From Candidatus Eiseniibacteriota bacterium (GTDB taxonomy: Bacteria > Eisenbacteria > RBG-16-71-46), in NCBI GenBank assembly GCA_044222365.1, contig JBGANH010000001.1:1-42223 (forward strand): DNA of 42,223 nucleotides, given 5' to 3'. Position numbers and translations under genes: made by a program. How positions within the stretch are numbered: the stretch's first letter is position 1; every line of letters starts with the position of its first letter. The notes under the pieces were generated by a model. The model was not told where the DNA came from. It saw only the letters and a list, made by a program, of their open reading frames with translations, and made no database searches. Positions 2,284-38,792 of this stretch are shown piece by piece.

Positions 2284-3201
2284 TCAGGGCCGGGCGAGCA
2301 CGCTCCGGTAAGCGATCCACTCGACCACGCGGGCCACCTCGGCGAGGCTTTCGGCGCTGACCTGGTCGGGTGTGTCCCGGTGGGTGTGCCAGGCGGGGTA
2401 GTCGAAGTCGATGAGGTCCACGGTCGGCAGGCCGGCATCCAGCAGGGGCACGTGGTCGTCGATGATGGACCACTTCACCTCGTCCCGGAACGACCGGGCC
2501 CCGGTCGCGCGGGCCGCCTCGGCCACCAGGGCGGTCAGGTTGGACGCCCGTTCGGCCGAGTTCTTCTCGTGGAAGACCTGCAGGTCCCGGTCCCCCACCA
2601 TGTCGAGCAGGAAGCCGGCGACGGGCCGTCCCGGCGAGCCGGGCGCCGGGAGGCGCAGGGCGTAGCCGCGCGAGCCGAGGCAGAACTCCTCGGGGCGGTC
2701 GTTCGTGCCGAGGTCCTCGCCGTCGAAGAAGACGAGGTCCACCCCGACCGGGGGCGGCGAGAGCTTGAAGCGCTCGGCCAGTTCGAGCAGCACCGCCACT
2801 CCGGACGCACCGTCGTTCGCGCCCGGCACGGGCTGGTCGTGGAACGCGGGGTCGGGATCGCGGTCGCACCACGGCCGCGAGTCGTAATGCGCGCAGAAGA
2901 CGATGCGCCGTCCCGTCGCGGGCCCGAAGCGCGCGATCACGTTCGTGAGCGCGACCGCTTCGCCCGACGCGGAGTCGGTGAACGCCTGGCGCTCGACACG
3001 TCCGCCCAGGCGCGTCGCCTCGGCGACGATCCATTCCAGCGTCTTCGCGTGCGCCTCGGTGCCGACGACGCGCGGCCCGAACGCGCACTGCGTCTTCACG
3101 CGCTCGTACGCGCGAGCGCCGTTCACGGTGGAGGTGCCGGCGCACGACGAGGGCAGCGCGAGGCCGGCGAGCAGGGCGAGGGCGAGCAGGTGGCGGGTCA
3201 T
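2284..3201 (-). CDS. M28-family metallopeptidase-fold protein, glutaminyl-peptide cyclotransferase (animal-type QC)-like, secreted or lipoprotein
   Basis: ATG at 3201 (MTRHLLALALLAGLALPSSCAG..., a signal peptide with a possible lipobox Cys). The motif series is FGPRVVGTEAH, CAHYDSR, GANDGASGVAVLLELA, LVFFDGEDLG, LLDMVG, IIDDHVPLLDAGLPTVDLID, WHTHRDT. It aligns block for block with QC/M28 proteins as I remember them. The start overlaps the sprA stop by 1 nt (TGATG). Confidence 0.8.
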   Translation of the reverse strand: MTRHLLALALLAGLALPSSCAGTSTVNGARAYERVKTQCAFGPRVVGTEAHAKTLEWIVAEATRLGGRVERQAFTDSASGEAVALTNVIARFGPATGRRIVFCAHYDSRPWCDRDPDPAFHDQPVPGANDGASGVAVLLELAERFKLSPPPVGVDLVFFDGEDLGTNDRPEEFCLGSRGYALRLPAPGSPGRPVAGFLLDMVGDRDLQVFHEKNSAERASNLTALVAEAARATGARSFRDEVKWSIIDDHVPLLDAGLPTVDLIDFDYPAWHTHRDTPDQVSAESLAEVARVVEWIAYRSVLARP

Positions 3202-9200: not shown

Positions 9201-9488
9201 GCCACCCGAGTCGGGCTCGATGCGCGTGCGCACCTTGCGGGGGTCGTACGACGGCGACAGCTTGATGCCGGTCGCCCCCATGCCGAACTTCGGGAGCCCC
9301 CGCTGGACGAAGTTCCGCTCCAGCGCGAGGCGCGTGGAGGGCTTCCAGGCCGGCGGCAGGCTGTCGAGCACGACCGGCTTGGGCTTGTGGCGCCCGAGAC
9401 CCTTCAAACCGGGCAGCGCATTCAAGCCGGGGATCCCGGAGATCCCCATCAGGAACGCGAGCACCGGTACGGCGAGCACATTGAGCAT
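3201..9488 (-). CDS. sprA: SprA/Sov-like type IX secretion system outer-membrane translocon (giant beta-barrel protein, 2095 aa)
   Basis: A true ATG at 9488 is followed by a hydrophobic N-terminus (MLNVLAVPVLAFLMGISG). A family-typical block is present: DLVQALDLGNTSLALPGTQYVSYSGRNEGLFGVKVATRFGPLDFTALASKQEGRSE. The composition is Ser/Thr/Asn/Gly/aromatic-rich and beta-strand-like throughout. The C-terminus ends ...RVEVRAQFSF with a terminal Phe, an outer-membrane signature. The size matches SprA. The family call is from memory and was not searched. Confidence 0.8.
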   Translation of the reverse strand: MLNVLAVPVLAFLMGISGIPGLNALPGLKGLGRHKPKPVVLDSLPPAWKPSTRLALERNFVQRGLPKFGMGATGIKLSPSYDPRKVRTRIEPDSGGWSVAVEVGDIRLGAPYRASLNQFAATNMNQTFLQRWQERSRRDLNSLGAGNAPATRQGLQLALPVQLPSFATSILGPGGPALNVSGSESIRLSGQSNWTNQQTTILGQKKSLFPSLDMQQDLDIRLEGQLSDRVKVNLLQNSANQIPLANRIAINYRGDEDDLVQALDLGNTSLALPGTQYVSYSGRNEGLFGVKVATRFGPLDFTALASKQEGRSERASYSGGSTRSNPTVADVDWIKGQYFLLYDPQYGAWRIDDASITIFRDDRINSNDYTPLRGKAMVDPTGQMMAGTLAGTPSDTAGYRGNFDRLTPLVDYEILPDYYAFADGLAFKIIRLKQPMPVNSNMCLAATYTAVPAAGTGGSTLLVGGQKLDASAGADSAYTLLKMLRPPRELLAAANSSELNTSAFDTTKAFDVVRELEMKNFYAIGGYGIDPKSFTLTIKRGRDEPPVQYADGPGGARVNYIEVLGLDSWDESNSTPVKGHDERVDGTGRTSGARAYVDYANGVLWLPDPHPFAPRVNGGTGRWFDELMNLPDNINRRANLTGAAGSSLAPNSGIYDKYKLDPVADARYYLVFDYAAQRSGGNISLNRGSLLEGSEVVTVNGERWTRDRDYRIDYDTGQITLVRGLGPTDQLSIDYSYAPLFQQAGKTLIGSAFRLEGRDRSLGGAFLYESKGAQDLRPRLGEEPSRTLITDLNSEWRFRPSFLTRMVDALPGVRTSTPSEFGIQAEVGASFPNPNTRNEVFVDDMEGVRDAVSLSMTADRWHAMSPPSRARTLDADRRALVVDDFLDLPGQRNAEVRWYMPPNYVHERDLKPTLEDAQGAKNPRQALALSVPQVPQEMRDDPGLRDSLWTGLTYVLDPQGIDLSRAQFIEVWVNDFRDRHDPAIPHDLVRANDNRVMLHVDLGVVSEDQMRAPNRLPDGFLNTEDTAPRDGQLTVPPAKDEDTGVDGVRGASEQTPIADLITARETDPEGDNYRDPDNDKEDIDPRKFQFTNGTEDNFRLAPYPDTEDLNGNDNLDREEHYFEYTIPLADSSRRYLVTDVYRDFAGQASVADDNGWRRYRIPITDSLRVQFGAPDLTMARHVRVWIEGLEEAEPKTANVQRPLLLLGGLEIVGNRWLAVELSEEQRQRHTTMTLNSVNSLDNADIYVPPFDPGETRNGNQAQTRREQSIALEFTNLGADTLEAYRAFSLEENYTRYGALRWYASSFEVAGYDAGVDSTLFYFVRFSSDERGQNYYEIKRRMPSPSAPRTIDWQESRVLLEEISNFKLSRPGLTAEPIRVAFGAAGDSVIIIGRPSFTRLRRVSFGVINANPPGGREYPSGQLWFDEIRATDVKKDVGYANRVLVNGRMANLFTYNLAWNSRDENFLSVGESRGTGSRNTQVQATSQFDLHRFFEGTGVTLPVSLAWNRNSSKPRFTAGDDVVRTGAQQEASETRSETRSISTTYSRAWGERTHPLLKYTVAGLTANISRSETDSRTPSAVSSSAATNAGVNWSVAPRALVGIGLPLAKTKFYPLPERVYWNYQVNATESKSFTRATDGSGELIASSDLKGRQATLGFGADSRPIDALSHHIDGTRALSLDNVPLDHVGFVNFGRLTSWRQNFSTRYTLQRGAWLRPSFNWGSNFGQMNDITSPNLSVRAVNNGQNLQMNWDLPFDGLLNRRPMAAAVPAKPDSTKPAAKPKGPSIGWRDVFSRVGNVQTDFQLSRSSSYSRLRGNPSLLYLVGLAEDPGLADSTGGVSAAAGNNSQTGLDWRTNARTRIPVVFGSQLMLRFSYGDRTGENNGVLSRTSDRRFPDVEVDYGRVANAIKLTKFLQNPSLRTAWSVSKTHDYQVRRDSLTGESRTSDFHPLLSMRGSFKNGIQADLGVNHRSTERLVHQFGTSSQIESNSDVNFTLSRSYSQGQKVTFLGKTSTVRSNVSMQLATIYSHTKGETRYANGVGAGQLRDETRLSVTTTGSYGFSSNVTGSAVLGFNHNKNKASGIVRRSVRVEVRAQFSF

Positions 9489-17619: not shown

Positions 17620-18909
17620 TCAGCGGACGGAGTCCTGCGTGCCGCGCAGGCGGTCGAGTTCGCGGTTCAACCGGCGGATTTCGTCCTCGATGCCCTTGAT
17701 GCGCGTCGTACCCGCGCCCGCGGCCCCGGCGGCGACCGGCGTGTCGTCCCCTTCGACGCGCATCCACGAAGGAATCGTCTCGCGCGATTCGCCGATGGCG
17801 ACGCGCCCCGTGCGCTGCATGTCGTTCCGCGCCCAGACGAGCGTCACCACGGTGCCGGGAGGAGTGGCGGCGACCCAGCGCGCGAGCTGCTCGGGATACT
17901 CCACACGCTCTCCGTCGTAGGCGACGATGAGATCACCCTTGCGCAGCCCGGCCTTCTCGGCCGGACCACCGGGCTGCGTCGCCTCGACGATCGCGCCGAT
18001 GGGGATGCGGACCCCGGGCTCCGACTCGCTCTCGACGAAGGCGCCGCGCGTGGACACGCCGAAGTAGCCGAGGTGCACGCGTCCTTCCGCCTTCAGGCTG
18101 CGGTGCACGGGCACGATGTCCTCGGACGGGATGACGAAGCTCATGCCGCTCGGCCGCCGTTCGCTGTCCGCGCCGCGGCGACCGGGCGCCTCGGGCGCGC
18201 CGAGTTCACCCTGCACGAGGCCGACGAGTTCGCCGCGCGTGTTGAGCGCCGCGCCGCCGCTGTTGCCGGGGAACACTTCGTTCGTGAGCTGCAGCAGGCT
18301 CGTGCGCGGCTCGCGGTAGCGCGACGAGACGTGCCCGACCGACTGGGTCGGCTGCGCGCGATACGAACTGCCGAGCGTGACCACCCAGTCGCCGAGCTGC
18401 GGCGGCCGGCTGGCGAAGCGCACCGGCGACAGCTGCAACCGCGGCGCGCGCAGCAGCGCGATGTTGCGGATCGGGTCCATGCCCGCGACCACGGCCTCGA
18501 CCTGCAGGCCGTTGTCGGTGATCACGAAGACCTTGTTCGAGCCGAGCACGACGCTGGCGGTGGTGAGGATCTCGTCGGTTCCGACCGCGACGCCCGAGCC
18601 CATGCGGCTGTGCGTGCGGCGCGAAGGCGCCTGCCCCGCGGTGCGCGAACGGGTGGTGACCGTGCGCTGCGCGACCACCGTGAGCATCGAGGGACGCGCG
18701 CGCTTCACGAGCGCGTCCACGTCCACCTCGACCGCGGTCACCGCGCCCTGCGCGCGCGCCTCGCGCGGCAGCGGGCCCAGGGCGCCGACGGCGCCGAACG
18801 CACACAGCGCCGCGACGAGCACGATGCCGAACACACCGAAGCGCGGGCGGCCCGTCGTGCGGTCCGTCCGCGCCTCGGCGCGGTGTGGCTGGAAGAAATG
18901 TGGAAGCAT
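17620..18909 (-). CDS. Membrane-anchored HtrA/DegP-like trypsin-fold protein with PDZ domain and C-terminal coiled coil; catalytic His and Asp substituted
   Basis: ATG at 18909 (MLPHFFQ...). The TM anchor is FGVFGIVLVAALCAFGAVGAL. The trypsin-fold blocks are GSGVAVGTDEILTTASVV, DPIRNIALLRAP and FPGNSGGAALNTRGELVGLV. The PDZ-like block is GAIVEATQPGGPAEKAGLRKGDLIVAYDG. The tail is IKGIEDEIRRLNRELDRLRG. Confidence 0.8.
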   Translation of the reverse strand: MLPHFFQPHRAEARTDRTTGRPRFGVFGIVLVAALCAFGAVGALGPLPREARAQGAVTAVEVDVDALVKRARPSMLTVVAQRTVTTRSRTAGQAPSRRTHSRMGSGVAVGTDEILTTASVVLGSNKVFVITDNGLQVEAVVAGMDPIRNIALLRAPRLQLSPVRFASRPPQLGDWVVTLGSSYRAQPTQSVGHVSSRYREPRTSLLQLTNEVFPGNSGGAALNTRGELVGLVQGELGAPEAPGRRGADSERRPSGMSFVIPSEDIVPVHRSLKAEGRVHLGYFGVSTRGAFVESESEPGVRIPIGAIVEATQPGGPAEKAGLRKGDLIVAYDGERVEYPEQLARWVAATPPGTVVTLVWARNDMQRTGRVAIGESRETIPSWMRVEGDDTPVAAGAAGAGTTRIKGIEDEIRRLNRELDRLRGTQDSVR

Positions 18910-18919
18910 GTCCGTCGGG

Positions 18920-19531
18920 CTAGAACGTGATGACGGCTTGTTCGCCCTGGACTCCCTCCGGCAGGTTCGACACCGCCACGGCACGGCCACGGCGCACCTG
19001 CACCGGGTCGAGCACGAAGTCGATGTCCTCGCTGTGATCGAACAGGTTGTCGGCGACGGTCGTACCGGCACCCGCGGCGGGAGCGGTCGCGGCGGTCTCC
19101 GGCGTCACCGGAGCCGTGGCGGCGTTCGGCACCGCGGCCACGAGCCGGGGCGCGGCGACCGTGCCCGGACGCTGCGCGAGCAGCGGCGAGCCCGGCATGC
19201 GGGTCACGTACGGCAGCAGCGCCAGGACGGCGAGCAGCACGGCGGCCGCGGCGGCGACCGGCGCCCAGCGCGGAGTCTCGCGCACGAAGATGCGGTCGGG
19301 CTCGGGTGCACGGCGCCTGGCCTCGGCCAGCGCTCGCTCGGCGAGATCCGGTGCGGCCTCGGCGCGCGGCAGCTCCTGCACCATCTCGAGCGCGCGCGAG
19401 TACGTCTCGTACTCGGAGCGGCAGGCGGCGCAGTCGCGGAAATGGCCTTCCAGCCAATCGCGCTCGGCACGGGTGATTTCGTCGTCCCAGAAAGCCCCGA
19501 AAAGGTCGTGGGCCCGGGTGCAGTGGCTCAT
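18920..19531 (-). CDS. Anti-sigma factor (zf-HC2 type), single-pass membrane protein
   Basis: ATG at 19531 overlaps the sigma gene stop (ATGA). The HxxxCxxC motif is present in LEGHFRDCAACRSEY. The TM segment is WAPVAAAAAVLLAVLALLPYV. It lies directly downstream of the ECF sigma gene. Confidence 0.75.
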   Translation of the reverse strand: MSHCTRAHDLFGAFWDDEITRAERDWLEGHFRDCAACRSEYETYSRALEMVQELPRAEAAPDLAERALAEARRRAPEPDRIFVRETPRWAPVAAAAAVLLAVLALLPYVTRMPGSPLLAQRPGTVAAPRLVAAVPNAATAPVTPETAATAPAAGAGTTVADNLFDHSEDIDFVLDPVQVRRGRAVAVSNLPEGVQGEQAVITF

Positions 19532-20163
19532 CGGGATTCCTGCTTTCGAAGTAGCGGTTGGAGCTTGCGCTTCAGCATGCCGCGCGCGCGATTGATGCGT
19601 GACCGCACCGTCCCGCCCGGTATGCCGAGCACTTCGGCGATCTCCTCGTAGGGCAACCCCTCGATGTCGCGAAGCACCAGTGCGAGCCGGTACTTCTCCG
19701 GCACCGTTGCGATGGCCTTGCCGACCTCCTCACGAAGCTGCTCGCGCTCGAGCCCGAGCTCGTGATTCTCGGTCGGATCGGCCAGCTGGGGAGCGCTGTC
19801 CTGCAGCACCTCGGTCAGCGCATCCAGCGAGAACCAGTTCCTGCGGCGTACCCGGCGGCGGATCTCGTTCTTCGCGAGGTTCGCCGCGATCGTGAACAGC
19901 CAGGTCGAGAACTTGGAACCGCGGCGGTAGTTCCGGCGGTGGACGAACACGCGCACGAACACTTCCTGCGCGAGATCGTCCGCACCGTTGCGGTCGTTCA
20001 GCACCCGGCTGATGAGGTTGGTCACACGGCCCTGGAACCGCCGGACGAGTTCGGGGAATGCCCGCTCGTCGTCCTCGGCCACCCGGGCCATGAGGTCTTC
20101 GTCGGACAAGCTCACGACCTGGGGTAGCGGCGGTTGATCAGGGGCCAAGTGGTTCCTCACCAA
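19528..20163 (-). CDS. ECF (sigma-70 family, group 4) RNA polymerase sigma factor
   Basis: Region 2 is AFPELVRRFQGRVTNLISRVLNDRNGADDLAQEVFVRVF...FSTWLFTIAANLAKNEIRR. Region 4 is LALVLRDIEGLPYEEIAEVLGIPGGTVRSRINRARGMLK. The first in-frame starts are TTG at 20163 and GTG at 20160, so the exact start is uncertain. Confidence 0.9.
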   Translation of the reverse strand: MVRNHLAPDQPPLPQVVSLSDEDLMARVAEDDERAFPELVRRFQGRVTNLISRVLNDRNGADDLAQEVFVRVFVHRRNYRRGSKFSTWLFTIAANLAKNEIRRRVRRRNWFSLDALTEVLQDSAPQLADPTENHELGLEREQLREEVGKAIATVPEKYRLALVLRDIEGLPYEEIAEVLGIPGGTVRSRINRARGMLKRKLQPLLRKQESR

Positions 20164-20232
20164 CGCGACATACCCCGGAGGGGGGCGCGGGTTCCCAAAC
20201 TCCTCGGCCCGGCCGGCGGCCGTTCACGGGAC

Positions 20233-21006
20233 TCAACGCAACGCCTCCAACTTGCTGCGCACCCGAGGGTTGGCGTCGGCCGCGAGGCTCGCTTTGTACT
20301 GCTTCCGGGCGGGTTCGACCAGCTTGAGGGCGGCGTAGACGTCCCCGAGGTGCTCGCGCACGACCGGGTCCCCGCCGGTCAGTTCGACGGCGCGCTCGAG
20401 CGCCACGCGGGCCTCTTCGAGCCGGCCCCGGCGGAAGAGCACCCAGCCCCAGGAGTCGAGGTAGGCGCCATTCTCCGGGTCCTGGGACAGCGCGCGGCGG
20501 ACGAGACGCTCGGCCTCGTCGAGTTCGCGTTCGTGATCGGCCAGCAGGTAGCCGAGGAAGTTGAGCGCCGGCGGCGCATCGGGCACCAGTGCGAGGGCGT
20601 CGCGACCGGCCTGGATCGCCGCGTCCACCTCACCCGCCTGTTCGAGACAGACTCCGAGGTCGAGCAACAGCGCGGGGTCGTCGCCGTGCGAGGCACGCAG
20701 CGCCCGCCACTCGGCCGCCGCTTCGGCGAACTTCTTCCGGTCCTGGAGAATGCGTGCGAGCAGCCGCCGCGGTTCGGCCGAATCCGGAGCCGCCGCGCTC
20801 TCGCGGCGCGAAATCGCGGCGGCGGAGTCGAGTTGCCCGGCCATCGCGAACGCCCTCGCGACGATGAGCCGCGTGCGCTGGGTGGACTCGCGGCTCGCCG
20901 TCCAGCGCCGCGCCAGATCGACGGCCTCCTTGCCGTGCTTCGCGCCGGCGAGCGTCGTGACGCTGCGCATCACGAGCCCCGGATCGGCGGGATCGAGCGC
21001 GCGCAT
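20233..21006 (-). CDS. TPR-repeat protein, C-terminal ORF fragment (frame stays open upstream of the ATG)
   Basis: TPR-like helical repeats are present (ALNFLGYLLADHERELDEAERLVRRALSQDPENGAYLDSWGWVLFRRGRLEEARVALERAVEL). The same frame reads on upstream as ...EKPPAPRDADALQTEAELAFELNRADEGRRALERM, which continues the repeats of the upstream ORF. Confidence 0.7.
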   Translation of the reverse strand: MRALDPADPGLVMRSVTTLAGAKHGKEAVDLARRWTASRESTQRTRLIVARAFAMAGQLDSAAAISRRESAAAPDSAEPRRLLARILQDRKKFAEAAAEWRALRASHGDDPALLLDLGVCLEQAGEVDAAIQAGRDALALVPDAPPALNFLGYLLADHERELDEAERLVRRALSQDPENGAYLDSWGWVLFRRGRLEEARVALERAVELTGGDPVVREHLGDVYAALKLVEPARKQYKASLAADANPRVRSKLEALR

Positions 21007-21041
21007 GCGTTCGAGGGCACGCCGTCCCTCGTCGGCGCGGT

Positions 21042-21938
21042 TCAGTTCGAACGCGAGTTCGGCCTCCGTCTGCAGGGCGTCGGCATCGCGAGGCGCAGGC
21101 GGTTTCTCGCGCGCGCCTCGCGATAGGCCTCGGCGGGACGATGCGCGCGGTCGAGCAGCACGACGAGCCGCCGGCGCGTGCCCTGGTCGTTGTCGTGCAC
21201 GCCGAGATGGTGCTGGTAGGCCGCGATGGCGCTCTCGAGGTCGCCGAGGTTCTCGCGCACGAACCCGCGCAGGAAGAGCGAGCCGGGACGCGCGGGATTG
21301 AGCTCCGTCGCGATCTCGAGCGCGGAGTCCGCTTCGGCGAATCGTCCCGAGCGCGCGAAGTAGGTCGCCAGCTGGAACCAGCTCTCGCCGTCCTCGCCGT
21401 CGAGCTGCGTCGCCCGCGCCCAGGCCGCCTGCGCGACCTCGGGCTGGTCCGCGGCGTCCGCGGCGCGCGCGAGCGTGCGCTGGTAGTCGGCGTCGAGCGA
21501 ATCGAGCCGTGCCGCGGTCCGCAGCGCCGCGACGGCGTCCGCCGGCTTCTCGAGATTGAACAGCGCCGCGCCGGCGAGCCAGTGCGCGCGGGCATTGGTC
21601 GAATCCACGGTCGTGGCGCGGCGGGCGAGCTCGAGGGCGCGAGAGGGATTCCCGGCGCGGCTCGCGGCTTCCGACAATCGCAACAGGACGCCGACGGCAT
21701 TGGGATCGAGCGTGAGCGCGCGCGTCAGCTCCGCGACCGCGCCCTCGGCGTCCCCCGCCTCCTCGAGCCAGCGGCCCTGCAGGTAGTGGCGGGACGCTTC
21801 CTCGGAAGGAGAACCGGCGCGCGCCGAATCGGCGGAACGTGAGCGAAAGCGGGTGGGCGCGTCGGCGCCGTGGGCGGCGGGCGTGAGCGCGAGCGTCAGG
21901 ACGAGCAGCGAGGCGATCGAAACCAGTGGTCGGCGCAT
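21042..21938 (-). CDS. TPR-repeat protein, N-terminal ORF fragment with signal peptide
   Basis: ATG at 21938. The signal peptide is MRRPLVSIASLLVLTLALTPAAHG. TPR-like repeats follow (RHYLQGRWLEEAGDAEGAVAELTRALTLDPN...). The last ~20 codons (RNRLRLAMPTPCRRRPNSRSN) look out of frame. Confidence 0.7.
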   Translation of the reverse strand: MRRPLVSIASLLVLTLALTPAAHGADAPTRFRSRSADSARAGSPSEEASRHYLQGRWLEEAGDAEGAVAELTRALTLDPNAVGVLLRLSEAASRAGNPSRALELARRATTVDSTNARAHWLAGAALFNLEKPADAVAALRTAARLDSLDADYQRTLARAADAADQPEVAQAAWARATQLDGEDGESWFQLATYFARSGRFAEADSALEIATELNPARPGSLFLRGFVRENLGDLESAIAAYQHHLGVHDNDQGTRRRLVVLLDRAHRPAEAYREARARNRLRLAMPTPCRRRPNSRSN

Positions 21939-22112: not shown

Positions 22113-23513
22113 ATGCAAGAGGAAACCAGAGTCCTCGTCGTCGACGACCACGGTCCCGCGCGACACACCATCGCGAACCTCGTGCGCCGTCACGGTCACT
22201 CCGCGGTCGAGTGCGACAACGTCGAAGACGCCTTCCGTGCATTCGACGCCGACCGCTTCGACGTCGTGCTCTCCGACGTGAAGATGGGCGTGCTCGGCGG
22301 ATTCGACCTGCTGCGCGGCATTCGCAAGCGCGCGCCGCACGTGCCCGTCGTGCTCATCACGGGACAGGCGAGCGTCAGCGACGCCATGGACGCGATGGAC
22401 GCCGGCGCCTTCGACTACCTGAGCAAGCCGGTCGAGTACGTTCCGCTCGGGCAGCTGCTGCGCCGCGCGATCGAGCATCACCGCATGATGCTCCGCGAGG
22501 ACGAGCTCGACGCGATGAACGAAGCTCCGCCACCCGAACTGCCGAGCATCATCGGCAAGTCGCGCGTCATGCTGGCCGCATTCAAGCGCGTGGCGAAGGC
22601 CGCGCGCGGCGATGCGAACGTGCTGATCCTGGGCGAGAACGGTACCGGCAAGGAGATGGTCGCGCGCGCGCTCCACCGCAACAGTGACCGCGCGGACAAA
22701 CCCTTCGTCGCGGTCAACGTTCCCGCGATCGCCGCGGGCGTGGCGGAGAGCGAACTCTTCGGTCACCGTCGCGGCGCGTTCACCGACGCTCGCGAGAGCC
22801 GCACCGGTCTCTTCGAGCAGGCCCATGGTGGCACGCTCTTCCTCGACGAAATCGGTGACCTCGACCTGGGCCTGCAGGTGAAGCTCCTGCGCGCGATCCA
22901 GGAACGCACGATCAAGCCGGTCGGCGGCAACGAGGAGATCGAGGTGGACATCCGCCTCGTCTCGGCGACGAACCGGGACCTCCTGCGCCGCATGCACGAG
23001 GGCCGGTTCCGCGAAGACCTCTACTACCGCATCAACGTGGTCTCCATCTCGCTTCCGCCGCTTCGCGAACGCGTCGAGGACATTCCCCAGCTCGCCTCGT
23101 ACTTCCTCGCGCGCTACGGGGCCAAGTCCGGGCGCCGCATTCCCCGTCTCACCCCGGAAGCACTGCAATGCCTGGAGCGCTATCGCTGGCCGGGGAACGT
23201 GCGCGAACTCGAGAACGTCATGCAGCGGTCGGTGCAGTTCTGCACCGACGGTCTGGTCACCCCGGACCTGCTCATGCTCGGCGAAGACGAGTCGATCATC
23301 CGCACGCTCGACGAGGGCGCGGATGAACTCGGCGTCCGGAGCGCCCTCGCGATCGGGCATCCGACGTTCATGCCGCTCCGCGACCGGATGGAGCAGTACA
23401 TGGACGAGGTGATCGAGGCGACGGGTGGCAACCTCACGCAAGCGGCGAAAATCTTGGGTGTCGCCCGGCGGACACTCCAGAGATTGTCCGCCCGCCGAAA
23501 GCACCTCGCCTGA
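22113..23513 (+). CDS. Sigma-54-dependent response regulator (NtrC family: receiver, AAA+ and Fis-type HTH domains)
   Basis: ATG at 22113 with AAGGTGGG upstream. The receiver domain has VLVVDDH...DVVLSDVKM. The AAA+ domain has VLILGENGTGKEMVARALH, ESELFGHRRGAFTDA, GGTLFLDEIG, RLVSATNRDL and FREDLYYRINV. The C-terminal HTH is GGNLTQAAKILGVARRTLQR. Confidence 0.93.
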   Translation: MQEETRVLVVDDHGPARHTIANLVRRHGHSAVECDNVEDAFRAFDADRFDVVLSDVKMGVLGGFDLLRGIRKRAPHVPVVLITGQASVSDAMDAMDAGAFDYLSKPVEYVPLGQLLRRAIEHHRMMLREDELDAMNEAPPPELPSIIGKSRVMLAAFKRVAKAARGDANVLILGENGTGKEMVARALHRNSDRADKPFVAVNVPAIAAGVAESELFGHRRGAFTDARESRTGLFEQAHGGTLFLDEIGDLDLGLQVKLLRAIQERTIKPVGGNEEIEVDIRLVSATNRDLLRRMHEGRFREDLYYRINVVSISLPPLRERVEDIPQLASYFLARYGAKSGRRIPRLTPEALQCLERYRWPGNVRELENVMQRSVQFCTDGLVTPDLLMLGEDESIIRTLDEGADELGVRSALAIGHPTFMPLRDRMEQYMDEVIEATGGNLTQAAKILGVARRTLQRLSARRKHLA

Positions 23514-23733
23514 GAGCGCGACTTTTTGTCGCGAGGCGCGCCAGTTTGACCACAGGACCGTTTCTCGTTGGTCGTGTGTGAGTTCTGGCGGTTTCGGCCG
23601 CGCGAGTGTGACAATGTGTCGCAGCACGTGAGTGCCGAACCACCACCACCATCTGGCTCGCGATACCATTATGGACAGCTAACTCGTTGCGAAACAAAAG
23701 CGAAGTGGCTGAAACCAAGAAACACCCGACGCT

Positions 23734-23749
23734 TGGCACCGATAGTGCA
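23734..23749 (+). promoter_or_regulatory. Candidate sigma-54 (-24/-12) promoter
   Basis: TGGCAC-CGATA-GTGCA has the GG (23735-36) and GC (23747-48) spaced exactly as in the consensus TGGCAC-N5-TTGCW. It lies about 220 bp downstream of the sigma-54 activator gene stop. Confidence 0.5.
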
Positions 23750-23759
23750 AAGCGAGATG

Positions 23760-24020
23760 GTCGAGTGGCGAAGCGCGAGAGCGCGGAGCCCGGGAGAGCG
23801 CAGTGGTTCTCCGAGACAGATTCGCGCCGAATCCGGCGCACCCATCTGTCGCCACTATGTGAAAGGGCACGGAAATTCCGAGGGGCCTGTCCTGATCGTA
23901 TGTGGCGGCAGTCTTGAGGCGGGGAGCGCAAGCTCCTCGCCTCGCTGTTTCCCCTGGGAAGCCTCCCCCCCGCTCCCCCAACGAACGCGGCCCCCGGGAC
24001 TCCCCGGGGGCCGCTTCGTA
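23760..24020 (+). ncRNA. Candidate sigma-54-dependent small RNA (~250 nt, family unknown)
   Basis: The transcript is bounded by the -24/-12 element and a 12-bp terminator hairpin. Hairpin 1 is GCGC-GAGA-GCGC at 23773-84. Hairpin 2 spans 23815-23850, with outer stem GACAGAT/ATCTGTC and inner stem GCGCCG-AATC-CGGCGC. Hairpin 3 is a 12-bp stem with a GCAA loop at 23916-23943. A C-rich tract GCCTCCCCCCGCTCCCCCA lies at 23961-23979. No convincing ORF is present, and GC is lower than in the flanking genes. Confidence 0.4.
23987..24014. terminator. Strong GC hairpin, likely a bidirectional terminator shared by rnc (minus) and the candidate sRNA (plus)
   Basis: GCGGCCCCCGGG-ACTC-CCCGGGGGCCGC forms a perfect 12-bp stem. 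The plus-strand tail is TTCGTA and the minus-strand tail is GTTCGTTG, both weak U tracts. The hairpin sits 25 nt beyond the rnc stop. Confidence 0.55.
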
Positions 24021-24038
24021 CCACGAACGTGAGCGCGC

Positions 24039-26006
24039 TCAGCGCTTGCGTCCCCGGCGTCCGAAGTTCGTGCGCCTCGGAGCGGGTTCTGCGCCTTTGC
24101 GCTGGCCGAAGTTCGCCATCGCGCGTTCCATCTCTTCGATGCGCGAGTCAACCTCGTCCTCGTCGTCACTCTCCGTCGCCGGCGGCGGGACGACTTCCAC
24201 GATCGGCGCGAGGTCGTCCTCCTCCTGCATGTCGAACGGATCGACGAGCAGTTCCTCGTGCGGCGACGCCAACTCCGGCTCGACGATCGCCCGAGCGGGT
24301 GCAGGCGCCGGTGAGGCTTCGGTCGGAGACACGACGGCCGCCGATTCGGTCGTCACGGGAGGCACGTTCGCCGAGGGCGCGGCGGGGGCCGCCCCGCGCA
24401 CGACCTTGCGCGTCGTGCGTCCCCACGCCATCGCCGCAGGTGCGGCGGGTGCGGTCGGCGCAGCCGAAGTCACCGAGGCGGTCGGCGCCGGAGCGGTCGA
24501 GGACGCGACGGTGGGCAGCGGAGCCGGCGCGGTCGGGATGAACGCATCCTCGCGTTCGTCCTCGTCGTCGAACTCGTCGTCGCCGTCCTCGTCCTCGTCG
24601 TCGTCCAGTTCCTCGTCGTCCTCGGCCGAGTCGTCCTCGTCGAGATCGTCGACTTCGTCGACCTCGTCCTCGTCCTCGGAGCCCGGCTCCGAGCCACCGT
24701 CGAGTTCGACCTCGTCGTAGTCGTCGTCGTCGAACGGCTCGACGTCGTCGGTCGCGGAGACCGGCTCATGCGACGCCAGTTCGAGCAGCCGTTCCGGCTG
24801 CTCGGGAGCGGCCTGCTCGCTGACGACGTCGAGATCCACCGCGTCGGCGCCTTCCTGCGGCGCGGCGACGGCACCCTCGCGGCGGCCACGGCCGCCCCTG
24901 CGCCCACGGCGGCGACGGCGTCCCTCACCCGAATCGTCCGGGTCTTCGGACTCGTCACGCGGCCGTGCCACCGGCGCACGTTCACGCGTCGGCTCGGGCG
25001 TTTCCTCGCGGGCGCCTCCCCGCACCTTCTCGACCCGCTCGAGCGCGTCTCGCGCCGCGGCCTGTTCGGCTTCCTTCTTGTTGTGGCCGCGCCCTTCGCC
25101 CAGCGTGCGGCGCCCGACCATGACCTCCACCATGAAGTGCTTGGAGTGGTCCGGCCCGTTCTCGCTGCGGATGCGGTACACGGGATGCGTGCGGTAGGTG
25201 CTCTGCACGTACTCCTGCAGGTGGCTCTTGTAGTTCGTGTGGCGCTTGTCCGCCACGATCGAGTCCGACTCCGCGAGCAGGTGCTTGTGGATGTACTCGC
25301 GCGCCACCTCGAAACCCTGGTCGAGGTACACGGCGCCGAGCACGGACTCGAAGGCGTCCGCGAGGATCGACAGCCGCTGGCGGCCGCCCGACTCCACTTC
25401 GGAGTGGCTCATGAGCACGTAACGCCCGAGCCCCATGCGCAGCGCGCGCCGGGACAGGATGGCCTTCGAGACCAGCAACGATTTGGTCTTCGTGAGCTGG
25501 CCTTCGTGCTCGTCGGGGTGACGGCGGTACAGGTACTCGCTCGTCACGAGCCCGAGCACCGAGTCACCGAGGAACTCGAGCCGTTCGTTCGACTCGCGCG
25601 GCCCCTGGCCGGTCACGCTCAGGTACGAGCGGTGGGTGAGCGCGAGCTTCAACAGTCCGGGGTCACGGAACGTGATGCCGAACTGCTTCTGGAACTCCTC
25701 GAGGACGCGCTTCTCCTGCTGGTCCAGCGACGCCGAACCACGGCGCGGACGCTTTTCCTCTTCCTTGCGTCCGAACCCGAACAGGGACTTGAGCCAGCCG
25801 AGAAAGCCGTTCGACTGGGCGGGAGCCGGCGTGCCCTCACGCTTGCCACGGCGCCGTCCCCGGCCTCCGCGGCGGCGTGCGCGCGCCTTTACGCGATAGC
25901 CTTCATCGCCAGTGTCACGTTGTGCCCGCCGAACCCGAACGAGTTCGACAGGGCGGCCTTCACCTTCACGGTTCGGGCCTGATTCGGGATGAAATCGAGG
26001 TCGCAT
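24039..26006 (-). CDS. rnc: Ribonuclease III with a basic N-terminal extension and a 327-aa low-complexity C-terminal tail
   Basis: LEEFQKQFGITFRDPGLLKLALTHRSY...NERLEFLGDSVLGLV...RQRLSILADAFESVLGAVYLD form the catalytic domain. NYKSHLQEYVQ...HSKHFMVEVMVGRRTLGEGRGHNKKEAEQAAARDAL forms the dsRBD. The only canonical in-frame start upstream of the catalytic domain is the ATG at 26006, which lies 118 nt inside fabF. The real start is therefore uncertain. Confidence 0.85.
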   Translation of the reverse strand: MRPRFHPESGPNREGEGRPVELVRVRRAQRDTGDEGYRVKARARRRGGRGRRRGKREGTPAPAQSNGFLGWLKSLFGFGRKEEEKRPRRGSASLDQQEKRVLEEFQKQFGITFRDPGLLKLALTHRSYLSVTGQGPRESNERLEFLGDSVLGLVTSEYLYRRHPDEHEGQLTKTKSLLVSKAILSRRALRMGLGRYVLMSHSEVESGGRQRLSILADAFESVLGAVYLDQGFEVAREYIHKHLLAESDSIVADKRHTNYKSHLQEYVQSTYRTHPVYRIRSENGPDHSKHFMVEVMVGRRTLGEGRGHNKKEAEQAAARDALERVEKVRGGAREETPEPTRERAPVARPRDESEDPDDSGEGRRRRRGRRGGRGRREGAVAAPQEGADAVDLDVVSEQAAPEQPERLLELASHEPVSATDDVEPFDDDDYDEVELDGGSEPGSEDEDEVDEVDDLDEDDSAEDDEELDDDEDEDGDDEFDDEDEREDAFIPTAPAPLPTVASSTAPAPTASVTSAAPTAPAAPAAMAWGRTTRKVVRGAAPAAPSANVPPVTTESAAVVSPTEASPAPAPARAIVEPELASPHEELLVDPFDMQEEDDLAPIVEVVPPPATESDDEDEVDSRIEEMERAMANFGQRKGAEPAPRRTNFGRRGRKR

Positions 26007-34993: not shown

Positions 34994-35293
34994 GGGGTCT
35001 CCCGTGAACCGAAGCGCCCGAAGACGCCCCGGACGGCCCTCAAGAGGATCATGGACGGGGGGAGTGCAGATGGACGCGGAAAGCTACCGAACGCGTTCCG
35101 GCGTGGCAAGCGCGCGGCGCCGCGTCCCGCCGGCCTCCTCGCGACGGCCGCGGGCGGGCACGGAGCGCGAGTTCGCGCTTCCGGCGCGGGGCGCGGAACG
35201 CGTACGATTTTCCCCGCTCGTCCCCGTGGGCGGGCTCCTGACGATGGTCTCCCGCACCCGCGCACCGCACCCGCAGCCACGGAAGCCCCCCGC

Positions 35294-36113
35294 ATGCCCG
35301 TCCTCCACCCTCCCGCCCCGCGCACGCGCCGCCGGCTCGCCGCCGCCCTCGCCTGCGTGCTGGCGCTGGCGCCGTTCGCCGCGCCGCGCCGGGCCGAGGC
35401 CGGGTGGGGACTGACGGGCATCCCCGCCACGCGCGCCCCCCGGGCGCAGTACCGGCCGGTCGCGGTGAGTGACGGCGCCGGCGGCATGCTGCTCGCCTGG
35501 CTCGACCACCGCTCGGGCTACAACGTGGACGTCTACGCCCAGCGCGTGCTTCCCGTGGGCTCGATCGGCACCAACTGGTCGCCCGACGGCAACGCGCTCA
35601 CGCACGTCACCTGCACGAAGTTCGACCTCGCGTTGGCGAGCGACGGCGCGGGCGGCGCGATCGCCTGGCGTGGACCGACGTGCGCTGCCCCGGCAGCGGC
35701 GTCGCCCCGCGTGTTGCCAGCGCGTGCGAGAGCGAGCGGCGCGCCGGATCCCGCGTGGCCCGTGGACGCACGCGCGCTGTGCAGCGCCACGGCACTCCAG
35801 GACAAGCCCGCGATCGCATCCCGGATGGCGCGGGCGGGGCCTTCGTGACGTGGAACGATCGGCGCTCGGGCTTCGCCGCGCTGTTCGCCACGCCGTGCTC
35901 AGCAGTGGCGCGATCACCCGGCTGGCCGGACAGCGGCCTGCGCCTCTCTCCCCGCTCACGCGCGACACGTGCGCCGCGGCGGCCCGCCGCCGGCGGCGCG
36001 GGCGGCGTGCTCGTCTATAGTTAATTCCCCGGTCCCGCCGCCGACACGATTCACGTGCAGCGCCTGACGGCGCCGGCGCCCCAGCCGCGAGCTGGCCGGA
36101 AAGCGGGGCGATC
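35294..36113 (+). pseudogene. Signal-peptide-bearing 5' region of a repeat protein, disrupted by multiple frame changes and an in-frame TAA
   Basis: ATG at 35294 starts MPVLHPPAPRTRRRLAAALACVLALAPFAAPRRAEA, followed by one intact ~50-aa repeat (SDGAGGMLLAWLDHRSGYNVDVYAQRV...). Later copies of the same motif appear only as pieces scattered over all three frames. Examples are PDGAGGAFVTWNDRRSG in the 35680 frame and AWLAWVDRRGPDADVYATRL in the 36116 frame. Confidence 0.6.
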
Positions 36114-36774
36114 GTGTGCGCGGCGCACGGCCGCCGCGACGGGCTGGTGCTGACGCCTCTCCGTCGAGGCAGGCGTGGCTCGCGTGGGTGGACCGCCGCG
36201 GCCCCGACGCGGACGTGTACGCCACGCGGCTCACCGCCGCAGGGGGCGCGGGCGTCCGGTTGGAGCGCCGACGGCGACGCGGTCGCGGCCGGATCCGGCG
36301 CACAGCTCTCGCCCGCACTGCTCGCGACCGCGGAGGACCGCTGCTTCGTGGCGTGGTCCGACGCTGCCGTCGCCGCGAACGGCGCCGACATCCGGACGCA
36401 GTCGTTGCTCCCGGGAGGTGGCCCCGCGCCGCTCTGGCCCGCGGGCGGCGTGCTCGTGTGCGGCGCACCCGCCGACCAGACCGCGCCGCTGCTCGCCGCG
36501 TCCGGCGCCGACGGCGTGCTCGTGGGCTGGGTGGACGCGCGCGAGCAGGCCGTGAACGCGCACGACCTCTACGTGCAGCGCCTGCTCGCCGACGGCTCGA
36601 TCGCGCCGGGCTGGGCGGCCGACGGTTTCGCGCTCTGCCGCCACGCGTCCGACCAGTCCTCCCCCATGCTCGTCGGCGACGGCGCCGGGGGCGCGCTCGC
36701 GGCGTGGGCGGACACGCGCAACTTGGCGCAGTCGGATGTGGATCTCTACGCGAATCGTGTCGGCGTCGGCGGCC
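35440..36774 (+). repeat. Protein-level tandem repeats (~50 aa per unit), propeller-like
   Basis: The recurring pattern is DG-x-GG-x3-W-x-D-x-R-x(4-5)-D-[VIL]-[YH]-[AV]-[QN]-R-[VL]-x3-G-x5-W-x3-G-x2-[VL]-C-x5-Q-x2-P. Three clean units lie in the intact ORF, for example GADGVLVGWVDAREQAVNAHDLYVQRLLADGSIAPGWAADGFALCRHASDQSSPMLVGDGAGGALAAWADTRNLAQSDVDLYANRV. Confidence 0.6.
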
Positions 36775-38792
36775 CGCTGCCCACGCAGATCCGGAACCTC
36801 GCGGCGCACCACCACGACGGCCAGACGTTCCTCACAGGCACGGCGCCCGCGACCACGGGCTACACGTACCGCTTCTACGTTTCGGACTCCCCCATCACGA
36901 GCACGGCCGACCTCGCGAACGCCACGTTCCTCGGCTCGCCGATGGATTCGAGCTGGTGCGCGCAGCGGCTCTCGCAGTTCATGGGCCAGACCTACGCCTA
37001 CTGCATCGACTCGCTCGCAGCGCCGCTCGATTCGACGCAGGTGCTCTTCGTGGTCACGGCTCCCGCGAATCGCACGGTGTGGTACGCCGCGACCGCGCAG
37101 GCCGCCGACGCCGAGGAGAACGTGACGATCACGCCCGGCGACAACGCGCTCGGCTCGCCGGTGCAGGAGTTCGTGAACCGTCCACGCCCGGTGTTCCAGC
37201 GCGAGCTGCAGGTGCACGCACAGACGACGTGGATGTACACGCTGTGGACCAGCGCCGAGGAGACCGCGCTTTACCCCGCCATGAGCAACCGCACGAGCCT
37301 GGCGTTCGACTGCGCGATCCGCCGCGGCTTCGACGCGCCGGACAGCACCTCGATGCTCGTCCGTCCGGCGACGCGGAACCTGTATTGCCTGAACGTGATC
37401 TGGTACACGCCCGGTTACTGGCTCATGGCGTTCGACGACCTGCTGCCCTCGGTGCAGGGCTCGTTCTACTACGGCTACCACGAGGGCTTCGACCACACGT
37501 TCGCGCACCAGCCGCCTCCGACGGGCGGCGTCATCCACGACTACACGCGGCAGCGGATCGTGTTCATGCTCGGCTGGGCGCGGCGCAACTTCCCGATCGA
37601 CACGACGCGCGTGTACGCATTCGGCTACTCGCTCGCCGGCGCGGCGGCCGCGACGCTGTCGCTCGCCGCCCCCGAATGGATCGCGGGCACGGAGAGCGTC
37701 TCGGGCCACTACGACTTCTCGTTCCGCGACGAGCCCGACCCGAACGCCGCGTTCAACACCGGGCAGTACTACGACCAGCTCATGACCGAGCTGTGGGGGC
37801 CGCTGTCGTCGAACCTGCCGAGCACCGCGGGGCTGCCCATCTACCAGTTGACGGACGCGAGTTTCATGGCCGGCCACCTCGAGCCGGTGGCCGTTCCGCC
37901 GCTCATCAGCATCGACGGCAAGCGCGACGTCCCGCTCGGCTGGGCCGAGAAGGTGCACTTCTACCGCGCCATGCAGCACCACCGTCAGGGCGGCACGTTC
38001 TTCTGGGACATGCACGAGCACAACACCGACCTCTCGAGCATGTACTGGCTGCCGATGCTCGGGCCGTCGTACCTGTGGCGCTGGAGTTCCACGCGCAGCT
38101 TCCCCGCACTCTCGCACTGCAGCGCCGACCACGATCCCGGCGACGGGCACGTGGACTCGGGCGATTCGCTCGGCACGATCAACGGCTTCGTCGAATGGGA
38201 CTCGCTCGTCGTGGACGAGCCCGCCGGCTGGGCGGTCACGTTGCGCCCGCGCGACCTCGTCACGACGCTCGGCCCCATGAACGCGCCCGACTCGTTCACG
38301 GTGGACGTGACCCCGCGCCGGCTTCAGGCGTTCCATGCCGTGCCCGGCCAGTCGTTCCCCTGGCGAGTCCTGCGCACGAGCGACGACGCGATCGTGCAGA
38401 GCGGCGACGTGATCGCGGACTCGCTCGGCCGGCTCACGCTGGAGGCCGTGCGCGTGTACCGCGGCGGCAGCCTCGTCTCCATCGGCGACCTCTCCGTGCT
38501 CGACGTGCCGCCACCGGTCGCCGCGCCGCCCGCGCGGCCCACGCTGGCACTCGGACGCCATCCGCTCCGCGGCGCCGGAGAGGCCTTCGTGTCGTGGCCG
38601 CGTGCCGGGGACGCGCGAGTCGAACTGCTCGACGTGGCCGGTCGGCGCGTGTCCACGCTGCTCCACGGTGCGGTGAGTGCGGGCTCGACCCGCGTCGCGA
38701 TCCCCGCACACCAGCTGCGCGCCGGACTCTACTGGCTGGTCGCGAGCGAGGGCGGCGAGCGCGTTTCGCGACGGCTGGTCGTCCTTCCGTAG
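36114..38792 (+). CDS. Large secreted-type protein: propeller-like repeats, alpha/beta-hydrolase-like central region, and a T9SS/FlgD-Ig-like C-terminal sorting domain
   Basis: The frame is open from 36021, and GTG at 36114 is the first canonical start. The first ~45 codons are probably not genuine in this frame. A candidate nucleophile elbow FGYSLAG lies at 37623-37640, with later PLISIDGKRDVPLGW and FFWDMHEH blocks. The C-terminal ~85 aa are LALGRHPLRGAGEAFVSWPRAGDARVELLDVAGRRVSTLLHGAVSAGSTRVAIPAHQLRAGLYWLVASEGGERVSRRLVVLP, which fits the T9SS type-A CTD pattern. This start has no signal peptide. Confidence 0.7.
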   Translation: MCAAHGRRDGLVLTPLRRGRRGSRGWTAAAPTRTCTPRGSPPQGARASGWSADGDAVAAGSGAQLSPALLATAEDRCFVAWSDAAVAANGADIRTQSLLPGGGPAPLWPAGGVLVCGAPADQTAPLLAASGADGVLVGWVDAREQAVNAHDLYVQRLLADGSIAPGWAADGFALCRHASDQSSPMLVGDGAGGALAAWADTRNLAQSDVDLYANRVGVGGPLPTQIRNLAAHHHDGQTFLTGTAPATTGYTYRFYVSDSPITSTADLANATFLGSPMDSSWCAQRLSQFMGQTYAYCIDSLAAPLDSTQVLFVVTAPANRTVWYAATAQAADAEENVTITPGDNALGSPVQEFVNRPRPVFQRELQVHAQTTWMYTLWTSAEETALYPAMSNRTSLAFDCAIRRGFDAPDSTSMLVRPATRNLYCLNVIWYTPGYWLMAFDDLLPSVQGSFYYGYHEGFDHTFAHQPPPTGGVIHDYTRQRIVFMLGWARRNFPIDTTRVYAFGYSLAGAAAATLSLAAPEWIAGTESVSGHYDFSFRDEPDPNAAFNTGQYYDQLMTELWGPLSSNLPSTAGLPIYQLTDASFMAGHLEPVAVPPLISIDGKRDVPLGWAEKVHFYRAMQHHRQGGTFFWDMHEHNTDLSSMYWLPMLGPSYLWRWSSTRSFPALSHCSADHDPGDGHVDSGDSLGTINGFVEWDSLVVDEPAGWAVTLRPRDLVTTLGPMNAPDSFTVDVTPRRLQAFHAVPGQSFPWRVLRTSDDAIVQSGDVIADSLGRLTLEAVRVYRGGSLVSIGDLSVLDVPPPVAAPPARPTLALGRHPLRGAGEAFVSWPRAGDARVELLDVAGRRVSTLLHGAVSAGSTRVAIPAHQLRAGLYWLVASEGGERVSRRLVVLP

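Follow-up and report, generated by a model that had tools for sequence, protein, structure and literature searches.

A conserved small RNA gene with a predicted sigma-54 promoter downstream of an NtrC-family activator gene in Candidatus Eisenbacteria

We analysed a stretch of 42,223 nucleotides from a Candidatus Eiseniibacteriota bacterium (GenBank assembly GCA_044222365.1, contig JBGANH010000001.1, positions 1 to 42,223 of the forward strand), hereafter the window, and in particular the gap at 23514-24038. This gap separates the gene of an NtrC-family response regulator and enhancer-binding protein (22113-23513, plus strand; the activator) from the convergent RNase III gene rnc (24039-26006, minus strand). 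A preliminary description of the same DNA had noted that the gap is less GC-rich than its neighbours (the GC fraction is 0.575-0.615 over 23500-23900, against 0.65-0.77 in the flanks) and that no plus-strand gene follows it, and Pfam matches agree with the gene assignments made there. It had also proposed that the gap holds a putative sigma-54-dependent small RNA (sRNA) gene directly downstream of the activator gene. This proposal came through all of our comparative tests, and every sequence element on which it was built lies where it had been placed, give or take one or two bases. Our results indicate that the gap probably contains a stand-alone non-coding sRNA gene under positive control of the response regulator whose gene directly precedes it. 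The predicted RNA is about 190 nt long (23760-23952, plus strand), its position being given by folding and a covariance model and its ends being estimates.

The comparison comprised 27 orthologous member loci, with activator identities of 45-100%, gathered by three routes: a scan of a genome collection in which the activator protein served as query (L001-L003), exact retrieval of homologs of the activator at 85-52% identity (L081-L088 and L106-L108), and a scan of metagenomes with a DNA pattern taken from the RNA core alone. The last of these returned 17 stretches, 12 of them true members and 5 chance matches. Several of the counts given below cover the first 24 member loci; L106-L108, which are more distant, were added later. 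The closest named relatives are metagenome-assembled genomes of Candidatus Eisenbacteria. Among the first 24 members, an activator ortholog stands directly upstream of the RNA in 23 of the 23 loci with sufficient contig, and rnc stands downstream of it in convergent orientation in 19 of 19; L106-L108 have the same gene order. Because the 12 pattern-derived members were found without reference to proteins, this linkage is not an artefact of the way in which the loci were gathered. The order of the whole region is constant, namely HtrA-like protease, anti-sigma factor, extracytoplasmic function (ECF) sigma factor, one or more tetratricopeptide repeat (TPR) proteins, activator (plus strand), gap, rnc, fabF and acpP (all three minus strand), and the gap between activator and rnc measures 370-555 bp across loci.

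Across these loci the RNA is roughly 150-260 nt long, with a variable 5′ part and a 3′ part that carries three conserved elements; the window RNA, of 193 nt, folds at -103.9 kcal/mol (z = -5.4 against shuffles). The most conserved part, which the preliminary description had overlooked, is a core hairpin of 66 nt (23846-23911, plus strand) supported by RNAalifold and by pair counts. Its base is a 10-bp stem, CUGUCGCCAC (23846-55) with GUGGCGGCAG (23902-11), followed by a bulged U and a 4-bp UAUG/CGUA stem, and its upper part consists of an internal loop UGAAA/UGAU, which could contain tandem G-A pairs in the modelled fold, a GGGCA/UGUCC stem and the apical loop. Over the 27 sequences the core helices are 95-98% paired, with compensatory change in 9 pairs. 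The MAFFT alignment has 97.1% of its cells paired and compensatory change in 11 pairs, against 39-48% of cells paired in controls with slid partners. A covariance model was built from this alignment and then used to realign all members, which gave 96.8% of cells paired and compensatory change in 20 of 40 pairs (5 in hairpin P1, 9 in the core and 6 in the terminator), again against 39-48% of cells paired with slid partners; the model-based alignment is biased to its own structure, and the MAFFT figures concur. Six divergent members, when folded singly, take the same shape. Furthermore, U-G and G-U pairs occur in 18-21 sequences and would read as A-C mismatches on the opposite strand, which identifies the plus strand as the RNA strand.

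The apical loop of the core carries the 11-nt sequence UCCGAGGGGCC (23877-23887, plus strand; also written AAAUUCCGAGGGG or AAAUUCCGAGGGGCC), which is identical in 27 of 27 members. The apical region has an invariant GGA triplet, the only GGA conserved in the core. In L106-L108, whose activators are 52-54% identical, the core stem has been rewritten (CUGCCGUCGC/GCGACGGCAG in L106) and the loop is unchanged. Since the stem covaries while the loop stays fixed, the loop is likely to be the part that touches something else, and we presume from this pattern that it is the effector site.

Upstream of the core lies hairpin P1, GCGCCG-AAUC-CGGCGC (23824-23839, plus strand), in which 89.6% of cells are paired and 5 of 5 modelled pairs show compensatory change. 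The preliminary description had placed this hairpin within a two-tier stem. The inner tier stands, as P1, and covaries; the outer one (GACAGAT at 23815-21 with ATCTGTC at 23844-50) is dropped, since it is found in close relatives only and conflicts with the core helix, to which AUCUGUC belongs. The variable 5′ domain (23773-23812, plus strand) forms two hairpins in the window, GCGC-GAGA-GCGC (23773-84), present as first described, and GGAGAGC/GUUCUCC (23793-23812), and both are matched in close relatives only. This domain ranges from 40 to 146 nt over the 27 members, and no motif or seed common to all of them was found in it, P1 apart. A further element, GAGACAG (23813-23819), lies upstream of P1 and pairs with the tail CUGUUUC (23945-23951) in the minimum-energy fold, closing the 3′ domain; another possible partner for its GACAG is the CUGUC of the core stem. 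It occurs solely in close relatives (the window, L001, L081 and L082, and partly L085), and the pairing was left out of the model for this reason.

The RNA would end at an intrinsic terminator, GAGGCGGGGAGC-GCAA-GCUCCUCGCCUC followed by GCUGUUUCC (23916-23952, plus strand), whose 12-bp stem (23916-43) is made of 11 Watson-Crick pairs and one G-U pair. The GCAA-capped stem had been described before, and it turns out to be this conserved terminator: hairpin and U-rich run were found in 25 of the 26 members with sufficient contig, with 99.6% of cells paired and compensatory change in 6 of 11 pairs. The exception is L092, in which an insertion is followed by a different hairpin in place of the terminator. 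As a consequence, the earlier estimate of a transcript of about 250 nt has to be shortened to about 190 nt, given that the conserved RNA stops at this hairpin and its GCUGUUU. The predicted start lies about 12 nt past the GC of the -12 element and the predicted end in the U-tract behind the terminator. In the window (23944-23960) and in about ten relatives the U-run is often followed directly by a C-run (UUUCCCC, UUUUCCCCC or UUUCCGCCC).

Two elements that had been counted as part of the transcript lie beyond this point. The C-rich tract is indeed present (23960-79), but its CCUCC can hardly be a pairing seed, as it lies behind the terminator and is not conserved. The 12-bp GC hairpin at 23987-24014 is likewise present but falls outside the conserved RNA; counterparts were seen only in loci with long gaps (L001, L081, L084, L088 and L090). 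This hairpin has U-rich runs on both strands and is therefore probably the terminator of rnc or a back-up that acts in both directions. It is absent from L083, L086 and L087, where rnc ends 13-20 nt from the terminator of the RNA; there the two genes probably share the terminator hairpin, which implies a shared or bidirectional terminator, and the 3′ ends of the RNA and rnc transcripts possibly overlap.

A sequence of the sigma-54 type -24/-12 promoter, TGGCAC-cgata-GTGCA (23734-23749, plus strand; GG at 23735-36 and GC at 23747-48), precedes the RNA, with the spacing that the preliminary description had reported. A search for TGGCACN5TTGCA with at most one mismatch gave one match in the window where 0.5 are expected; the match alone is thus within chance, and the case rests on the comparison with relatives. 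There, all of the first 24 loci have a relaxed -24/-12 pattern within the 330 nt that precede the core, against 0.34 in shuffles and none on the reverse strand. With L106-L108, which also carry the match, this amounts to 27 of 27 loci, so that the aligned relatives all retain GG and GC at the same spacing while the stems of the RNA covary. The promoter-anchored stack yields the consensus yTGGCAC-N5-CTGCa (in full, yTGGCAC-cga-nn-CTGCa), and the invariant loop follows the promoter at a distance of 95-201 nt, in most loci 116-147 nt. A search of 23400-24200 for sigma-70-like promoters found none.

The region between the activator gene and this promoter contains two palindromes, which had been put forward as activator sites and which recur at fixed distances. 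The distal one, CGCGAC-TTTTT-GTCGCG (23517-23533), lies right behind the activator stop codon, and the proximal one is TGTGAC-AATGT-GTCGCA (23607-23623). When the 300 nt preceding each promoter were searched for GCGAC-N5-GTCGC, one mismatch being allowed, 30 sites came up, against 0.63 in shuffles. Counted from the promoter TGGC, they group around two positions, about -216 and about -125, and most loci have a pair of TGCGAC-N5-GTCGCA sites; the proximal palindrome stands at about -125 (range -113 to -127) in 15 of 24 loci, and L106 and L107 carry it as more degenerate variants. A 17-bp dyad with a 5-bp spacer is the format of NtrC-type sites. Their location at least 100 bp from the promoter, next to a gene that encodes an HTH_8 enhancer-binding protein, makes these palindromes candidate activator-binding sites. 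Between them and the promoter lies a box, TAACTCGTTG (23680-23689; consensus yAAnnnnTTG), which we presume to be of integration host factor (IHF) type from its likeness to the published IHF consensus (WATCAANNNNTTR). It is visible some 53-44 nt upstream of the TGGC in most loci, by inspection of the promoter-anchored stack. Dyads, IHF-like box and -24/-12 element together form what reads as the textbook layout of an enhancer-dependent promoter.

Comparison with known families did not place the RNA in any of them. At gathering thresholds, Rfam 15 gave no match in the whole window, and with E up to 10 neither 23400-24200 nor 10 other member loci gave a relevant match. In all, the permissive scans covered the gap and 15 member loci and returned noise, apart from one resemblance in L094 (2899-3003, minus strand), which aligns along the entire model of asX1 (RF02235), an RNA of 116 nt from Xanthomonadaceae that has no known function (PMC3300014). 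The two share an outer GC stem, an inner hairpin with a GGAA...GGGGCC-like stretch and a terminator. This candidate was rejected: it scores 37.4 bits against a threshold of 70, is confined to a single member and does not form the first inner hairpin. The plus-strand RNA of the window and 14 other member loci gave no match to asX1 (E up to 10 or E up to 0.1), and we treat the resemblance as chance or unproven. A CsrA sponge of the CsrB/RsmZ type was rejected too; many GGA motifs in loops would be expected of it, and the RNA has one invariant GGA and a 5′ domain without a motif.

The covariance model (R1) finds a single copy in the 42-kb window (23812-23957, 146 bits) and none beside 77 paralogous activators from other phyla. 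A match of 24.8 bits in L048 was discarded as an ordinary terminator behind a stop codon. As far as we have seen, within the range surveyed, the RNA family appears to be limited to the Eisenbacteria lineage. One activator homolog, P0103, bears the source label Candidatus Udaeobacter (Verrucomicrobiota) and stands in a gene order exactly of the Eisenbacteria type; it was probably mislabelled in binning or annotation, and otherwise the locus reaches beyond the phylum.

In the search for targets, we found 5 complements of the loop with at most 2 mismatches in the window, where 7.2 are expected. Duplex energies between the loop region and the translation starts of nine neighbouring genes were not significant (the best, fabF, had z = -2.3), and no complementary site recurred across 26 syntenic loci.

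The activator is called as a protein of 466 aa, supported by Pfam and by its translation; the public protein of that length (P0001) is 100% identical to it. Its open reading frame (ORF) is open from 22005 (502 aa), and public gene calls begin at 22113. Pfam matches are Response_reg, Sigma54_activat (227.7 bits), AAA_lid_14 and HTH_8. At about aa 256-261 of the 502-aa ORF, the loop that contacts sigma-54 has the sequence GAFTDA. This variant, rather than the canonical GAFTGA, is found in 42 of the 50 best protein clusters, which hold the window activator and its closer orthologs; GAFTGA is found in 68 of 70 more distant syntenic activator orthologs, and three clusters have GSFTSA. No partner histidine kinase was found in the window, and no histidine kinase gene lies near the activator in the same region of relatives; the response regulator is therefore an orphan.

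On the other side of the gap, the rnc product matches Ribonucleas_3_3, Ribonuclease_3 and dsrm in Pfam and carries a long acidic C-terminal extension that is evident from the translation. Its ORF is of 655 aa. The catalytic and double-stranded RNA-binding domains finish at about aa 325 and are followed by some 330 aa that are acidic, rich in Ala and Pro and probably disordered, and then by a tail that is basic and rich in RG. The orthologs are 332 to 655 aa long, and the extreme C-terminus (..IEEMERAMANFGQRK..) appears conserved in L001-L003. Upstream, at 17620-21938 (minus strand) in the window, lies the module that encodes an HtrA-like protease, an anti-sigma factor of the zf-HC2 type, an ECF sigma factor and one or more TPR proteins; it is always divergent from the activator gene, in the window as in all relatives. 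With ECF sigma factor, anti-sigma factor and HtrA on one side and rnc and fatty-acid synthesis genes on the other, the surroundings hint, by association only, at envelope or lipid homeostasis. Elsewhere in the window, a 2,095-aa ORF (3201-9488, minus strand) has an SprA_N (motility/secretion protein) domain, and two long ORFs (36114-38792, plus strand, and 35084-36391, minus strand) have high third-position GC and lack a Pfam match.

Sequence comparison thus establishes the gene, its strand, its secondary structure, the type of its promoter, the palindromes upstream of that promoter and its strict linkage to the activator. The RNA appears to have its own promoter and its own covarying terminator with a U-run, and rnc lies on the opposite strand, as is expected of a stand-alone sRNA gene. 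Judged on these comparisons, it is a real, conserved and previously uncatalogued sRNA family, for which no membership in a catalogued family by sequence or structure was found. Its dependence on the neighbouring activator is suggested by the strict linkage and by the position-locked sites.

The mechanism that we propose would run as follows. The phosphorylated activator would bind the two palindromes, about 90 bp apart (23517-33 and 23607-23), and a bend at the IHF-like box (23680-89) would deliver it to sigma-54 RNA polymerase at 23734-49, where ATP hydrolysis would open the promoter. Transcription would start near 23760 and stop at the GC hairpin and U-run of 23916-52. In the resulting RNA of about 190 nt, the 5′ third would be free to vary, and the working part would be the rigid hairpin at 23846-23911 that displays the loop AAAUUCCGAGGGG. 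This loop would act in trans, most likely by pairing with C-rich, GGCCCCUCGGA-like sites in distant mRNAs. The RNA would then be the post-transcriptional output of an orphan two-component pathway, much as Qrr is for LuxO and as Pxr is thought to be for Nla19. Trans action through the loop is what we infer from its invariance; pairing to C-rich mRNA sites is favoured because the best-studied analogues work in this way, and the evidence for it is thin.

Several observations weigh against this proposal. The contact loop of the activator, GAFTDA, departs from the canonical GAFTGA. No rpoN gene was found among the proteins of the 42-kb window, and its presence in the genome is presumed from the Sigma54_activat domain, which is conserved. 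Where the RNA starts and ends, and its expression itself, are predictions, and the terminator of the window has a short U-run that fails a simple terminator scan. The statistics rely on mononucleotide shuffles, on search patterns refined after the data had been seen and on phylogenetically related sequences. As for the mode of action, base-pairing is postulated while searches of the window and the syntenic neighbourhoods turned up no complementary target; a G-rich loop cannot directly occlude a Shine-Dalgarno sequence in the usual way; and near-total invariance of a 66-nt hairpin at such divergence suits protein recognition at least equally well. In favour of the proposal, the sigma-54 interaction domain of the activator is intact.

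The serious rival retains the gene and its regulation as described but has the RNA bind a protein, as a decoy or adaptor, instead of mRNAs, with the loop, the rigid stem and the G-A internal loop as docking site, by analogy with GlmY for RapZ and CsrB for CsrA; the partner could even be the convergent RNase III. We regard such a role as possible, if on the unlikely side. A loop identical in 27 of 27 members, a 66-nt hairpin that hardly changes while the activator falls to 45% identity, the invariant apical GGA and the lack of a nearby mRNA target among those searched all speak for it, although invariant seeds are typical too of sRNAs with many targets. In addition, the hairpin amounts to about 25 bp of nearly continuous duplex, a length that would suit an RNase III substrate, and rnc is always its neighbour. 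Against this, no partner protein co-varies or co-occurs specifically with the RNA, and rnc and the fab genes are housekeeping genes that stand together in many bacteria. Eisenbacteria do encode CsrA homologs, of which few are predicted to be functional (PMC13443453), and one conserved GGA contrasts with the many of CsrA sponges. That RNase III, with its long acidic extension, should be the dedicated partner of the hairpin, so that a two-component signal reprogrammes a global ribonuclease, seems to us a rather remote prospect; if true, a decoy or adaptor RNA acting on RNase III would be a mechanism without precedent among sRNAs under sigma-54 control, and one peculiar to an uncultured phylum.

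A minor rival is a role in cis, in which the RNA, or read-through from it, pairs with the 3′ end of the rnc mRNA and creates an RNase III substrate that tunes RNase III levels. The convergent rnc in 19 of 19 loci, the probably shared hairpin in the three loci where rnc ends 13-20 nt from the terminator, and the weak U-run of the window, which makes read-through into rnc plausible, would all fit. This role is nevertheless improbable, for in the window 130-190 nt separate the core hairpin and its loop from the stop codon of rnc, and a simple antisense overlap would have no need of them, a separate hairpin (23987-24014) stands between the genes in several loci including the window, the G-U pairs reveal selection on the plus-strand fold, and the distance from the RNA to rnc is anything between 13 and about 200 nt. 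It is very unlikely that there is no independent gene and that we are looking at a structured 3′ untranslated region of the activator mRNA or at DNA elements, with TGGCAC-N5-TGC fortuitous or otherwise used. The RNA does lie on the strand of the activator, less than about 250 nt past its stop codon, and its expression as a gene of its own is a prediction; but the -24/-12 match is kept in 27 of 27 loci while its surroundings diverge, position-locked palindromes and an IHF-like box are sensible only for an enhancer-dependent promoter, and the covariation reflects selection on RNA pairing, not on DNA. Finally, a small protein is scarcely credible. One plus-strand frame over the core is free of stops in 23 of 24 members, as is one minus-strand frame, and long GC-rich ORFs overlap the gap. 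Two of these long ORFs are blank in Pfam and no reading frame is conserved, in line with the preliminary description, which had dismissed them. The core is 65, 66 or 68 nt long across members, and the one-base indels shift the frame, leaving a wholly different peptide downstream, which rules out a coding region; besides, the AUG of the core is replaced in several members, and substitutions are compensatory in stems and not concentrated at third codon positions.

The preferred reading, a stand-alone sRNA gene under the control of the adjacent response regulator, makes this locus an annotatable finding, not a new principle. Eisenbacteria are known from metagenomes only, and at this locus the sequence alone reveals a regulatory module in full. 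An orphan response regulator and its sites are joined there by a sigma-54 promoter and by an RNA whose 11-nt loop is unchanged while the regulator has diverged to 45% identity. A narrow literature search on the phylum name and sRNA found no report of a regulatory RNA in Eisenbacteria. The seed alignment of the covariance model can be used to annotate the RNA in metagenomes, and the defined loop and promoter lend themselves to tests in a heterologous host, with no need to culture the organism. That the 66-nt hairpin and its loop hardly vary over so deep a divergence leaves room for a more unusual, protein-directed mechanism.

The locus is an independent example of the design in which a sigma-54 activator stands beside its sRNA, as in Vibrio, Myxococcus and enterobacteria, and it lends support to the view that such wiring has arisen more than once. 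In Vibrio, qrr1 adjoins luxO in divergent orientation, whereas the Eisenbacteria RNA is co-directional with its activator and downstream of it. The Qrr RNAs use an invariant region for target pairing; theirs is a single-stranded conserved stretch, in contrast to a G-rich apical loop on a long hairpin, and no Rfam match to Qrr was obtained. What the two systems share is an NtrC-family activator and a sigma-54 promoter for an sRNA gene; in Vibrio the sRNA is the main output of the regulator (PMC10162802).

In promoter architecture the closest match is GlmY/GlrR of the Enterobacteriaceae, where glmY has a sigma-54 promoter, several palindromic GlrR sites (TGTC-N10-GACA) more than 100 bp upstream and IHF sites in between, and where GlrK/GlrR are encoded beside glmY with strict co-occurrence of RNA and two-component system (PMC4152352). 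The Eisenbacteria sites read TGCGAC-N5-GTCGCA, and the locus differs in having neither an adjacent histidine kinase gene nor a detected overlapping sigma-70 promoter and in giving no Rfam match to GlmY or GlmZ. GlmY is a protein decoy, for RapZ.

In layout the closest match is Pxr/Nla19 of Myxococcus xanthus; the likeness is one of gene arrangement, and Rfam gave no family match for the Eisenbacteria RNA. The differences are of phylum (Myxococcota against Eisenbacteria), of downstream gene (NADH dehydrogenase against rnc) and of length (108 nt against about 190 nt), and the developmental role of Pxr is without an obvious counterpart in the Eisenbacteria RNA. In both cases an sRNA gene lies directly downstream of the gene of a sigma-54-dependent response regulator, on the same strand; in Myxococcus, the spacer of 262 nt holds a predicted sigma-54 promoter and an enhancer site, and the RNA has multiple stem-loops, some conserved and some variable (PMC5568312).

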